From NCBI GenBank assembly GCA_010015585.1, contig ML975163.1: a stretch of 64,000 bases of DNA; one strand, given 5' to 3'. Of this stretch, positions 52,365 to 55,966 are shown piece after piece (the first letter of the stretch is position 1; the number at the start of each line of letters is the position of its first letter). The translations under genes were made by a program, and so were the position numbers. Source of the DNA: Eremomyces bilateralis CBS 781.70 (taxonomy: Eukaryota). The notes under the pieces are model-generated. The model saw only the letters and a program-made list of their open reading frames with translations, searched no databases and was not told the DNA's origin.

Positions 52365-53444
52365 TCATGGCATCTCCGCATACACCGTATCCCCCTCCTT
52401 AGGCGGCTCCAAATAGTCCGGCGGGATATCCACCGGCAGCTGCCTCGCCTGCGCATACTCTCTTACGTCATCGAAGTTCCGACACATATGCCGCGTGTTG
52501 AAATCGACATACGCGCGCGGCGCGGTCTGGTTCCACCACACTTGACCCAGCACGCCCAAGTCAACGGTGCACATGAGTTGTTGGCGGAGGATGTCGAGGC
52601 AGTGGGCTTGGGGGGGTTAGCGGGCTGTTGGAATGGTGGAAAGGGGGTGGTTGGTGAGACGCACAGACGTGGACCCGGACGATGTGGTCGTCGTTCAGGA
52701 AGGCGCCTTTGCCTTGCGCTTTGTAGTAGTCATAGTTGTAATATAGCGACTGTCGGAGGAGATTCAAGCAGTGTAGTTGATGCAGACCCTCGACGTTCGC
52801 GACGTAGCCTCCACCGTACTTCTTGGCCACCTTCACTTGGTCTGGTTGCAGCCCGGATGCGGCCGCTTCGGATTCTGGGACGACGAGACTGCGATCTAGG
52901 AGAGCTGTGTTAGTATCCAATGTCCTCGGTAAGTTTGAGGGTTAGGAGGGAAGGAGGGGAAAGTACAGTTAACCCCGAGCGAGTTCCAAGCCGCATCGAC
53001 CTCCGGGCTCGCATTTTGTCGGTAGATGTTCTCTTTCATCAGTGAGCCGTTGAAGCGGATTAATGAATAGCGGATGCCAACATCCTTCACAACCTGGGCT
53101 ATTTGACCGTTAGGAACCTCTCTTCGTGTAGAGACCGTACGGAGGGGAAGTCAGGGCTCGTGCTCACAATATTGGGACACATATCGTGTCGCGAAATCAG
53201 CCGGATTGAACGCCCATTGACTCCCTGCCCAGGCACCTATCAAGCCGATGACTGCGTACGAGACGAGTACAAGTGGTGCGACGAAATATCTGGCTCTACC
53301 ATCTTTGATCCATCGCCGTCTCCGGTGTCGCGGTGCCTCTTTCTCCAACGACGGGTTCAGAAGGGCTTCCTCTGCCTCGTAGCTATCTCGTGAAGAGAGC
53401 TCGCTGAATTTCGGGGACGATTGCCCGAGGAAAGTGTCCGGCAT
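52365..53444 (-). CDS. DUF3328 / UstYa-like oxidase (two HxxHC motifs, N-terminal TM anchor)
   Basis: Four exons (introns ~53167-53099, ~52966-52897, ~52664-52608) give a TM segment, SPEVDAAW..L, VEGLHQLHCLNLLRQ, VHVSHCLDILRQQLMC.VD, DFNTRHMCRNFD. Confidence 0.93.
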
Positions 53445-55222
53445 TTTGGTTTCCTAGCTCTTTACTCTGAATAGAGTCGCCAAAGATCTCTAGCAACCGC
53501 TGTCCGACAAGTTGAGAATCACAAACGCAGCTGGTTCAATGGAAACAGAAGATTTTGATCCGATCTTGATTCACAGCAGTAAAGGGAAACGAAGCAATCT
53601 TTTCTGTCGTGAAAGACATGAACTCTCCAAACCACAAAGAAATCCTCTCAAAGCCACGGTATGTCGGTGAGCTGTATGCACAGCCTTACAAGAGCTCACT
53701 CGGGTAATCGCATTGCTAAAGTTGGCACTTACTATTGCTTAGAAGCCGGCTCAGCCGGGTTATGCTTGTGGGGTGCATGAAGCCATGAAGGATGTGGTGG
53801 GAACCTCTGCATGATCCGCTAAGTGGCTGACAGGATCAATGTCGCCATCGTGATCGGAATTGGTTGCCATCGTCCCGGATTATTCGGGAAGGCCAACTGG
53901 TGAGATTCATCCACAACATTGGATTTGTCAATGTGGATAAACATAGTATTGGAGACCATCGATAGGATCATTGAGAGACCTCCGTGTCCTATCATTGCTT
54001 GTACGAATAGGCCGCTAACAAAGTCCATTCCGGGGTTAGACGGAGGAATCGATACTCAGCTTGAAGTCTACCCTGGCATAGGATCTGCATCGTAAGGCTA
54101 GATCGGGGGAATTATTGCTGCACGTTATTATTAGCAGTTCCCATAACGGTGTGGATGGTCGTATTTGATGATTGATCAGATGGACGTTGGAGAAGTGGAG
54201 TTGAAGTAAGATCGCGCACAGACGGGGCAAGAGCGTGGCATTGCTTTAATCCTGGTTCCTGCATCGGGGCTAACCTCATTGGGAATTCGTCCTATGATGT
54301 GGGCGTCATTCCATTCATCGCCATACCTAGACCGATGGAAGCTTTCTGGACAAGCAGGTAGTTACTTCCATGCAGACCTTTAGCGGTCTTGATCTGGGGC
54401 ATGTGAATCGAAGCCGTTTCGATGGGAATTTGGAGAGTCCGATATGCACCGTAAACTGACTGATCTGTACCACGAGGAATGCTACACTGCCGCAAACGTC
54501 CACCTACCATGGCAGATGATGGAAACATTGTTAATGATCTATTGGCAACCTGCATATAGATCATCGTTCAGCTACATTCGGTACAGGTATCTTCTTTTCT
54601 CTATTTTTGCCTTTGATATGCACGATCCTGCAGTCACGCAATCCAACGATCCGCCTTTCTCTCGCCAATGGCAAGACTCAGCATTTCACCCAGCTACAAT
54701 GCATCAGCATGCATTTGTCAATGGATTGAACTCCCGAGGCGATGCAAGCTCACAGCGATCCGAAATCATCCACGATGCCCATGAAAGCGGGGATCTCTCG
54801 TACGCCTATACCACAACTAGGAAGGTGACATGGCTGCGGCAAGCGAATATGGATTGAAACCGAATACACCTCCATGTTGAGATGGACTTGCATGGATCTA
54901 TCAATAGGACACGACAGTGATTAGCGCAGAGGGCACACTGAGGTGACTGATGGATGGACGCTTCGTCCGAGTCTCAGGATCCGACGAAGATCGACGATGC
55001 TGACGGATAGATTCTGACCGCTGTGTTGGAATCCGTCAGAATATCTACACAGCCGCTAAGTATTACGCCTGAACAATTGAATAAAGCAACGGGGTGGGGG
55101 TTACCTATTGTCCTCTCTGCTATAATAACCACCCCGTCCCAGTCAGTCTTCATCTCGACCATCATCTTCCCCTCCCCTTCACTGACACCTTCAAGACCCA
55201 AACCACCTCCAAGAACTCCAAC

Positions 55223-55966
55223 ATGCTTACCCGTAACTTCCTCGCCCTCCTCGCCGCCGCCGGCGGCGTCCTCACCGCCCCAGTAGTCGACTCCCGCTCC
55301 CCCGACCCTGCCGCCGCCCCAGAACCCGCCCCCGTCGCCGACCCAACAGACAAACCCGCCGACTACGGCGACTATGGCCAATACGGCAAATACGGCACCT
55401 ACGGCTCCTATCCCCCTCCAGGCAGCTACGAGAAATACGACCCCCCTCCAGGCGGCTACGCAGACTACGGTGCCTACCGCCGCTCTATCCGCGCTCCGAT
55501 CCGCCGACGTGATGACTACGGCAACTACGGCGACTACGGCCGCTACGGAGACTACGGCTCGTATCCTCCTCCTGGCAGCTATGACAAATACGACCCCCCT
55601 CCCGGCGGCTACGCGAACTACGGCACCTATCGCCGCTCGGTCCCCGCGCCGGTCGTGAAGCGGGACGACTACGGCAACTACGGTGATTACGGCGGGTACG
55701 GCGACTATGGCTACTATCCTCCTCCGGGCGGGTACGAGAAGTATGAACCTTCTCCGGGTGGATACGCGGACTACGGCGCCTATCGCCGCTCGGTCCCGGC
55801 GCCGGTCGTGAAGCGGGACGACTACGGCAACTATGGTGATTACGGCGGGTACGGCGACTATGGCTACTATCCTCCTCCGGGCGGGTACGACAAGTATGAT
55901 CCTCCTCCAGGTGGATATGCGGACTACGGGAGTTACAAGCGGGAAGCGGAGGCGGCGGAGAACTGA
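55223..55966 (+). CDS. Secreted Kex2-processed repeat protein (KEP), Tyr/Gly/Pro-rich; candidate RiPP precursor
   Basis: Signal peptide MLTRNFLALLAAAGGVLTA; four cores such as DDYGNYGDYGGYGDYGYYPPPGGYEKYEPSPGGYADYGAY, each ending in RR/KR and separated by SVPAPVVKR/SIRAPIRRR spacers; ends KREAEAAEN. The ORF track starts at an upstream non-ATG codon. Confidence 0.92.
   Translation: MLTRNFLALLAAAGGVLTAPVVDSRSPDPAAAPEPAPVADPTDKPADYGDYGQYGKYGTYGSYPPPGSYEKYDPPPGGYADYGAYRRSIRAPIRRRDDYGNYGDYGRYGDYGSYPPPGSYDKYDPPPGGYANYGTYRRSVPAPVVKRDDYGNYGDYGGYGDYGYYPPPGGYEKYEPSPGGYADYGAYRRSVPAPVVKRDDYGNYGDYGGYGDYGYYPPPGGYDKYDPPPGGYADYGSYKREAEAAEN
55358..55942 (+). repeat. 153-bp coding tandem repeat, about 4 copies (51-aa unit)
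   Basis: GCTCGGTCCC(C/G)GCGCCGGTCGTGAAGCGGGACGACTACGGCAAC recurs 153 bp apart (~55636 and ~55788); units 3 and 4 are the most similar. Confidence 0.92.

Follow-up and report, generated by a model that had tools for sequence, protein, structure and literature searches.

A conserved head-to-head pair of UstYa/DUF3328 oxidase and tyrosine-periodic Kex2-repeat precursor genes in Eremomyces bilateralis, probably a modified-peptide system

A 64,000-nucleotide (nt) stretch of contig ML975163.1 from the fungus Eremomyces bilateralis CBS 781.70 (assembly GCA_010015585.1), referred to here as the window, contains two divergently oriented genes. One, on the minus strand, encodes an oxidase of the UstYa/DUF3328 family, whereas the other, on the plus strand, is an intronless open reading frame (ORF) for a putatively secreted Kex2-processed repeat protein (KEP). 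The two lie head-to-head with their starts separated by 1778 nt (53445-55222), and they are the only UstYa locus and the only KEP-like ORF in the window. The initial annotation of this DNA had described such a divergent pair across ~1.78 kb, and each element of that layout was recovered, down to its coordinates (Table 1). As judged by comparison with related loci, the pair is a conserved two-gene module. It is probably an uncharacterised example of a modified-peptide system whose general kind is already known.

Table 1. Features of the oxidase-precursor locus (positions in the window)
Feature	Position	Strand	Details
UstYa/DUF3328 coding sequence	52365..53444	-	four exons: 53444-53168, 53098-52967, 52895-52665, 52606-52365; 293 residues
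UstYa transcribed span	52140..53652	-	one spliced RNA contig, 1316 nt; true transcript ends may differ
Predicted membrane anchor	53229..53285	-	residues 54-72 (FVAPLVLVSYAVIGLIGAW); top 19-residue Kyte-Doolittle window, 2.11
First HxxHC motif, HQLHC	52768..52782	-	residues 175-179; positions invariant in 17 orthologues
Second HxxHC motif, HVSHC	52599..52671	-	residues 212-216; RNA contig and spliced translation
Shared divergent intergenic region, presumed bidirectional promoter	53445..55222		1778 nt; RNA cover about zero over 53738-55072
Precursor gene, intronless	55223..55966	+	247 residues; Tyr/Gly/Pro-rich Kex2-repeat protein; ORF, Tandem Repeats Finder, RNA contigs
Signal-peptide-like N terminus	55223..55279	+	MLTRNFLALLAAAGGVLTA; hydropathy; near-identical NFLALLA start in P0001, P0002 and L005
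Repeat unit 1	55358..55510	+	40-residue core, then RR-SIRAPIRRR
Repeat unit 2	55511..55663	+	core, then RR-SVPAPVVKR
Repeat unit 3	55664..55816	+	core, then RR-SVPAPVVKR
Repeat unit 4	55817..55963	+	core, then KR-EAEAAEN (alpha-factor-like KR-EAEA tail)

The three introns of the oxidase gene (53099-53167, 52896-52966 and 52607-52664) all have GT..AG ends on the minus strand and are all skipped by the 1316-nt RNA contig, with the acceptor of intron 1 backed in addition by the conserved SQYS junction of the orthologues. Exons 2, 3 and 4 match Pfam family PF11807, a check that the initial annotation had proposed, with E values of 9.1e-6, 2.7e-18 and 2.5e-17 and scores of 26.1, 67.1 and 63.9 bits, all above the curated cut-off of 25; the matches are colinear along the profile (positions 54-90, 95-162 and 168-220). 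The protein begins with a tail rich in charged residues (residues 1-53), continues into the hydrophobic stretch of the predicted anchor and then carries the two HxxHC motifs, the second of which has its codons split by intron 3 (coding parts 52665-52671 and 52599-52606). Across 17 UstYa orthologues, the His and Cys columns of these motifs are invariant or nearly so, and four cysteines (179, 216, 226 and 255) are conserved. This layout of a short tail, one transmembrane helix and then the catalytic domain fits the UstYa family, with a predicted luminal topology, and from its sequence the window oxidase is a bona fide UstYa. The four-exon DUF3328 gene with a membrane anchor, HQLHC and HVSHC, as first described, is thus confirmed by RNA introns and PF11807.

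The public model of this gene, P0005, which its source assigns to Eremomyces bilateralis CBS 781.70 as a hypothetical protein, agrees with ours throughout exon 3 (100% identity). Further upstream (53168-54028) the two models differ: P0005 passes over the real first exon and takes its start from an upstream ORF (~53819-53930) instead, so that it lacks the N-terminal tail and the anchor. The RNA contig is unspliced across 53168-53652, which favours the present model over P0005, as do the orthologues.

The same order of elements is seen in CctR, the DUF3328 enzyme through which the family was recently characterised biochemically. There an N-terminal tail leads into a single transmembrane helix, beyond which lie a luminal helical domain carrying HxxHC(x)nHxxHC and, towards the C terminus, cysteines (PMC12435403). 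CctR is a membrane-anchored, luminal homodimer in which HxxHC(x)nHxxHC provides a binuclear copper site, and its activity depends on O2 and needs electron input (PMC12435403). As a point of difference, CctR is a cyclochlorotine hydroxylase that acts on a non-ribosomal cyclic peptide. A profile search of the PDB with the UstYa clade gave a best E value of only 0.66, and hence no solved structure related by sequence. A predicted complex of two UstYa luminal domains with one repeat unit of the precursor scored 0.20 against a mark of 0.34, a value that speaks neither for nor against binding.

The precursor starts with a putative signal peptide, judged from hydropathy and from its likeness to homologues, followed by a Pro/Ala-rich stretch and then by the repeats. 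These are recovered by Tandem Repeats Finder with a period of 153, 3.7 copies, 84% matches and a score of 683. Each 51-residue unit consists of a 40-residue core (e.g. DDYGNYGDYGGYGDYGYYPPPGGYEKYEPSPGGYADYGAY), RR or KR, and a short spacer ending in KR or RRR, such that every core is flanked by dibasic RR/KR/RRR sites that can be read straight from the sequence. With four tandem units split by dibasic KR/RR sites, the protein has the architecture of a KEP, and homologues also end in KREAEA, like unit 4. Tyr makes up 20% of the mature precursor (46 residues), Gly 17.5% and Pro 15.7%. Each core contains 11-12 tyrosines, 11 of which occupy identical positions in all four units, and 30 of the 45 gaps between successive tyrosines equal three, a count reached by none of 10000 shuffles. 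The intronless gene with four dibasic-flanked, Tyr-periodic repeats that had been described is therefore confirmed, its signal peptide being a putative one on hydropathy and homologues.

The precursor matches no Pfam family, PF07172 included. Its exact sequence is absent from a 15-billion-protein collection, and no self-match appeared in the sequence search; it is probably missing from the deposited annotation or modelled differently there. An identical sequence is nevertheless present in the ESM Atlas, where its model is disordered (pLDDT 0.46). The best feature match in the Atlas, 0.83, is a lead only, and the structure matches all have TM scores below 0.5.

Transcripts of both genes are present in a single RNA data set from the same organism, that of UstYa being correctly spliced. 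The data are contigs of a public run that we judged to be RNA by its behaviour, because introns are removed, a poly-A loose end is present at 51825, intergenic DNA is uncovered and adapters occur at contig ends. The contigs cover the precursor from ~55073 onward, and the segment 53738-55072, at about zero RNA cover, is fully covered by a DNA run. The only skip within the precursor is a 153-nt collapse of the repeat with GC..CG ends; the gene is therefore taken to be intronless. At 55861, in repeat unit 4, the T of the window is replaced by C in both DNA run X1 and RNA-like run X3, a synonymous TAT/TAC change that may be a repeat-collapse effect in the contigs or a true difference. One RNA contig spans 55799-56895, from the last precursor repeats through the 3' end and into the convergent RRM gene, such that either the two transcripts overlap at their 3' ends or the assembler joined them.

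Searching with the precursor alone returned only four weak relatives, which share the NFLALLA signal peptide, a core start of (D/N)YG.YG and a core end of YG.Y-KR followed by EAEA or EADA. A six-sequence profile gave 94 matches at E<=0.01, 54 of them of the small, secreted, Tyr-rich type. The other 40 are Tyr-poor and Cys-rich and match only the extra domain of one query member, P0004 from Acephala. This member is fused to the Cys-rich domain, which by itself defines a separate secreted group, some members of which carry PF01683. In an alignment of 21 members, the invariant columns are tyrosines, glycines and the Arg of the dibasic site, which stands directly after the last Tyr, and the consensus reads ...PPxGGYxSYGxY-KR. 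Searched against 1.84 billion cluster representatives, the 21-member profile matched 191 at E<=1e-3, a count of clusters at 50% identity; of these, 50 reach <=1e-10 and 2 reach <=1e-30. A signal-peptide-like start is seen in 92 of the 126 representatives that are new, and the strict end motif Y..Y[GSAN].Y with a dibasic pair after it in 63. One or two cores are usual in the family, which makes the window's four-core protein a multi-copy variant. The named sources are Xylographa (three species), Amylocarpus, Acephala, Exophiala sideris, Cladosporium halotolerans, Aureobasidium, Mollisia, Lasiosphaeria, Patellaria, Pseudogymnoascus, Venturia, Staphylotrichum, Niveomyces and Thozetella, which we take to span at least five classes of Pezizomycotina.

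In a subset of members, among them P0125, P0129, P0130, P0135, P0221, P0232 and P0253, the last KR is followed by a conserved amphipathic C-terminal tail of ~6-10 residues (AVDWVKSLF, AIDFVKRLWS), which the window protein lacks. The tail could serve recognition or sorting, or could itself be a second peptide. The weak member P0189 is effector candidate g14174 of a Venturia paper, in which it belongs to no family and is not up-regulated in planta; the available supplements of that paper contain nothing tying it to any of its nine dikaritin clusters. The available text of a lichen paper on peptides that ribosomes make and that are modified after translation (RiPPs; PMC12048977) makes no mention of tyrosine or Xylographa, and the literature searched, which excludes subscription papers, yielded no paper on this precursor family or its product.

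No Pfam family covers the precursor group. PF07172, a plant glycine-rich family, matches 4 of the 21 members at E<=0.01 (best E 5.6e-5); for the one member with a score available, that score (18.4 bits) falls below the curated cut-off of 30 bits. Such matches would suit an intact structural wall protein akin to plant glycine-rich or extensin-like proteins, its dibasic sites unused and its chains cross-linked by peroxidases or by UstYa. The Tyr, Gly and Pro content, the disordered Atlas model and a variation between units that preserves pattern rather than sequence point the same way. Even so, we regard such a protein as quite improbable, for the Arg after the last Tyr is invariant throughout the alignment, and a dibasic pair is present there in most members, single-core ones included. 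Spacers also differ completely among lineages (SVPAPVVKR, AEAEKEKR, EADAVNAAIEEKR) while core ends are kept, which is the pattern of a precursor that is cut. Cleavage by kexin is accordingly suggested by the family-wide alignment.

Conservation of the linkage, which the initial annotation had proposed as a check, was assessed by one scan of metagenome contigs with a three-sequence precursor alignment. Nine loci were returned, four of which (L001, L003, L005 and L008) are true homologues by ORF reading. The others (L002, L004, L006, L007 and L009) were rejected as simple DYG-type DNA repeats or as another frame of an unrelated gene. L005 and L008, 94-96% identical in DNA, were counted as one lineage. 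Loci with at least 3 kb upstream were considered evaluable, which places L003 outside the count, as its contig ends 605 nt upstream of the match. A UstYa orthologue lies divergently upstream of the precursor in all three evaluable loci (L001, L005 and L008; two lineages). Using tblastn, seven UstYa orthologues matched only these three among the nine loci, on the opposite strand and over the catalytic domain at 55-77% identity, and no UstYa was detected in the false-match loci L006 and L007, which have full 10-kb flanks. Start-to-start spacers in the relatives are 1637, 1792 and 1926 nt versus 1778 nt in the window, and the intron after the SQY/HY motif is in the same place in the relatives' UstYa. 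The three intergenic regions compared, those of the window and relatives, have no common k-mers above shuffles.

The neighbours of the pair are different in each context. In the window, shugoshin and peroxidase genes lie on one side and an RRM gene on the other; L001 has RIX1 and TPR at one end and Usp and PAF67 at the other, and in L005 DUF2985 and Sen15 flank the pair on one side, opposite a Zn2Cys6 factor and a kinase. When 40-64 kb of the window is compared with these loci by tblastn, the UstYa gene alone is found in common, with the caveat that the low-complexity filter would hide the precursor. As far as it was run, the linkage test is positive. The L001 cores begin with DDYGNYGDYG as in the window, although the spacers are unrelated (AEAEKEKR versus SVPAPVVKR). 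Within L001 (9697-10683), an intron lies inside every repeat unit (GG/gt...ag/DY), whereas the window gene has none; because each unit has its own intron, the L001 units must have been duplicated as DNA, introns included. The Zn2Cys6 factor gene of L005 (12251-15598), ~1.8 kb downstream of its precursor, is peculiar to this lineage and could be a local regulator.

UstYa genes are numerous in Pezizomycotina genomes and low-complexity ORFs are common, so that an ORF of this kind might lie beside an unrelated UstYa gene by chance, with no common function. Given that the ORF is transcribed, that its homologues have the same signal peptide and motif order, and that the adjacency is repeated in independent contexts, we consider this extremely improbable.

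A distant branch of the family has been catalogued previously. The distant member P0213 clusters at 90% identity with Pseudogymnoascus P0342 (KFY36835.1/KFY51272.1), and both accessions of the latter are listed as KEP type 105 with 'DUF3328 in vicinity' (Umemura Table S2). On one page of that table, all seven type-105 rows carry the flag, which denotes a DUF3328 gene within 15 genes and does not give its clade. Within this branch, P0213 has an E value of 5.8e-3 with profile A3, and P0182, P0210 and P0214 have values of 6.7e-14 to 5.7e-11 with profile A4. Type 105 resembles the window precursor in being a Tyr/Gly-rich family member with multiple RR-flanked units and a DUF3328 flag, but its units and spacers are different (e.g. 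RR-DANPE...) and it is known from a single genus. The initial annotation had left open whether homologous pairs were already catalogued. The answer is divided: the distant branch is known as the uncharacterised type 105, whereas no exact copy of the window precursor itself exists in the protein collection described above.

The oxidase belongs to a widely distributed clade. A search with exon 3 found 191 proteins at E<=1e-3 among 275 candidates. The 119 matches listed besides the self-match P0005 share 63-80% identity in exon 3 and represent Leotiomycetes, Dothideomycetes, Eurotiomycetes (with many Aspergillus and Penicillium) and a lichen fungus, and full-length identity to seven orthologues is 51-58%. 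With identities of this order, the clade is, at the sequence level, a strongly conserved orthologue group and not a fast-evolving cluster-specific enzyme. Prokaryote genome contigs and viral contigs contained no UstYa relatives, as expected for such sets.

Around the pair, a peroxidase domain (PF00141) at 50.9-51.5 kb lies just downstream of the 3' end of the UstYa gene, and an RRM protein at 56.2-56.9 kb lies beyond the precursor. The initial annotation had named these housekeeping flanks CCP1 and NOP15; the domains are present and fit these putative names. The gene order before the pair is SUR7, RING protein, Dad2, shugoshin and peroxidase domain, with the RRM protein following, and farther off are M24 peptidase, WD40, SFM1, MYG1, ICE2, CHL4, GH26, a Zn-cluster factor, HLH, SDR and DUF7598. 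These assignments come from Pfam scans of chosen stop-to-stop fragments, 46 from 34-64 kb and 91 from 1-34 kb and 57.4-64 kb, comprising the longer fragments that do not overlap one longer still. No tyrosinase, S41 peptidase, major facilitator superfamily transporter or UstM-like methyltransferase was found in the fragments scanned across the whole 64-kb window, in agreement with the earlier statement that no tyrosinase, methyltransferase or transporter lies nearby, and no tyrosinase turned up in the scanned fragments of the L001 and L005 flanks. The locus is minimal in all three genomic contexts (the window, L001 and the L005 lineage). Elsewhere in the window, long open stretches occur at 59300-60900 on both strands and in several reading frames, with no Pfam match at E<=1e-3, and the whole stretch of 57.7-62.7 kb gave no Pfam family.

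Pairs of KEP and DUF3328 genes are a known and frequent kind, with 1758 of 7878 KEPs having a DUF3328 neighbour (PMC7329392). Among characterised systems, the module is of the dikaritin type and closest to asperipin-2a, with cores ~5 times longer than any known. In Aspergillus flavus, asperipin-2a is formed from the core FYYTGY, in which a single DUF3328 enzyme installs two ether rings between Tyr side chains and beta-carbons, and its cluster comprises four genes (aprA for the precursor, aprY for the DUF3328 oxidase, aprT and aprR) without a tyrosinase (PMC6514808). Both systems have a secreted Kex2-repeat precursor, a lone DUF3328 enzyme with no tyrosinase, tyrosines three apart and very few genes. 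They differ in that the asperipin-2a unit is 8 residues long with 3 tyrosines, compared with a 51-residue unit, a 40-residue core and 11-12 tyrosines here, and in that no transporter or reductase gene lies nearby among the window fragments scanned.

The resemblance to ustiloxin and phomopsin (UstA/PhomA, UstYa/Yb, PhomYa-e) is more general, comprising a signal peptide with KR-flanked repeats, a DUF3328 gene beside the precursor and reactive tyrosines. Their cores are 4-6 residues long (YAIG, YVIP) with Tyr-Ile cross-links, and they need a tyrosinase (UstQ/PhomQ) and several tailoring genes, whereas the window precursor lacks a Y-x-I motif, no tyrosinase was found and the pair sits among housekeeping-type genes. 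Like dikaritin loci, the window thus has a KEP with a DUF3328 gene nearby; the short core and the tyrosinase of that class have no counterpart in what was found here. The repeat units of known DUF3328 substrates are 13, 14 and 8 residues long (PMC7329392). The earlier remark that 40-residue cores far exceed those of dikaritins therefore stands, the comparison being with cores of 4-6 residues and units of 8-14.

A second point of comparison is Rep1 of Ustilago maydis, a KEP cut into long, 37-residue peptides that stay on the hyphal surface and alter wall properties (PMC6339444). Rep1 provides a precedent for long-core KEPs with a structural role. It differs in coming from a basidiomycete, in peptides that are not Tyr-periodic and in that no DUF3328 gene is reported for it.

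We think it rather likely that the pair is a conserved module in which four 40-residue peptides are released by Kex2 and modified at their tyrosines by the neighbouring UstYa. The precursor would enter the endoplasmic reticulum through its signal peptide and be cut in the Golgi by the kexin Kex2 at the RR/KR sites. A carboxypeptidase, and possibly Ste13-type trimming, would then finish the ends to give four related peptides, each with its 11-12 tyrosines mostly three residues apart. UstYa, as a type-II membrane-anchored oxidase facing the lumen, would act on these peptides within the secretory pathway. The chemistry we favour is repeated oxidative cross-linking from a Tyr side chain to a beta-carbon or to another Tyr in an i/i+3 arrangement, which would produce multiply stapled peptides. 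Such cross-links are favoured because the Y-T-G-Y spacing of asperipin-2a equals the Y-x-x-Y period seen here, the less favoured alternatives being hydroxylation, desaturation or Tyr-Tyr coupling. What stands of the initial RiPP reading is a real UstYa gene beside a real, expressed Kex2-repeat precursor, with conserved linkage in a minimal locus; a modified product would be the predicted outcome.

Another way to account for the pair is that the peptides are linear and unmodified. The precursor would then be an ordinary KEP for signals or surface material, like alpha-factor or Ustilago Rep1, UstYa would serve another substrate, and the pairing would reflect a shared promoter or old synteny. Consistent with this, 78% of KEPs have no DUF3328 neighbour and many yield linear peptides (PMC7329392), and the KR-EAEA and X-Ala/X-Pro residues after the cleavage sites resemble Ste13 signatures, which are typical of hormone-like KEPs (PMC6339444). 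Two further observations fit linear peptides and at the same time weigh against a UstYa-modified product. First, the UstYa clade occurs in many taxa including Aspergillus and Penicillium, whereas none of the ~20 named precursor-family members is from Eurotiales, such that the enzyme may have another or a wider substrate. Second, in Acephala the precursor-family member P0004 and the UstYa-clade protein P0115 map to separate contigs, of 848 kb and 455 kb respectively, and are thus an unlinked pair, although P0004 is an atypical fusion and another UstYa could adjoin it.

Three additional points count against the modified-peptide interpretation. DNA-level linkage beyond the window amounts to two lineages, supplemented by a catalogue flag that means within 15 genes. 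The 40-residue cores in 51-residue units far exceed the 8-14-residue units of known DUF3328 substrates. Finally, units 2 and 3 share identical spacers, yet 8 positions differ between their cores, which suggests selection on the Tyr/Gly/Pro pattern and not on an exact ligand sequence.

Despite these points, we hold linear peptides to be rather unlikely. The head-to-head pair recurs with similar spacing in three lineages with all flanks different, and unless the two are functionally linked, it is difficult to see why one DUF3328 clade would be retained beside one small gene. The DUF3328 flag of the type-105 rows on that table page also argues against them, and Tyr, the residue used by known DUF3328 cyclases, is enriched in KEPs with DUF3328 neighbours (65.6% versus 38.2%; PMC7329392).

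Under the favoured reading of Tyr-modified peptides, a diffusible product and wall or surface material would both fit. The variation between units suggests a material or surface function, as in Rep1, and suits a toxin or signal less well. A sulfated 'DY' peptide mimic of the plant PSY/RaxX type, considered as a candidate, was dropped with nothing in its favour, the organism not being known to us as a plant pathogen. Going further, the module may be a widespread physiological, non-toxin RiPP-like system of Pezizomycotina in which this unusually conserved UstYa clade installs a ladder of i/i+3 Tyr cross-links on Tyr/Gly/Pro peptides of 24-45 residues, a proposal we advance tentatively and consider doubtful as it stands.

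KEP and DUF3328 pairs as such were already known, as was the distant Pseudogymnoascus branch. The analysis adds a wide Tyr/Gly/Pro family whose conserved end reads GGYxSYGxY-KR, shows it closely paired, head-to-head, with a single highly conserved UstYa clade to form a module of two genes that stands by itself, and reveals long cores with many tyrosines. The locus also illustrates that small precursor genes may escape a public protein set and that models of the oxidase gene beside them may be wrong, as in the anchorless P0005.

DUF3328/UstYa proteins have only just been defined as copper enzymes and nearly all that is known of them comes from toxin pathways, in which the cores are very short. 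Against this background the module stands out as minimal, with one enzyme and one precursor, as conserved across fungal classes among ordinary genes, and as having substrates ~5 times longer with a dozen potential cross-linking sites. If UstYa acts on the cores, the pair would offer a two-gene system for studying peptide recognition and repeated processing by DUF3328 enzymes, as well as a route to a new peptide scaffold and to what KEP peptides do for the fungus. Should the more tentative proposal of a cross-link ladder prove true, poly-stapled peptides or covalently cross-linked wall or surface material would represent a new structural class, and DUF3328 copper enzymes would for the first time have a conserved cellular role beyond toxin clusters.

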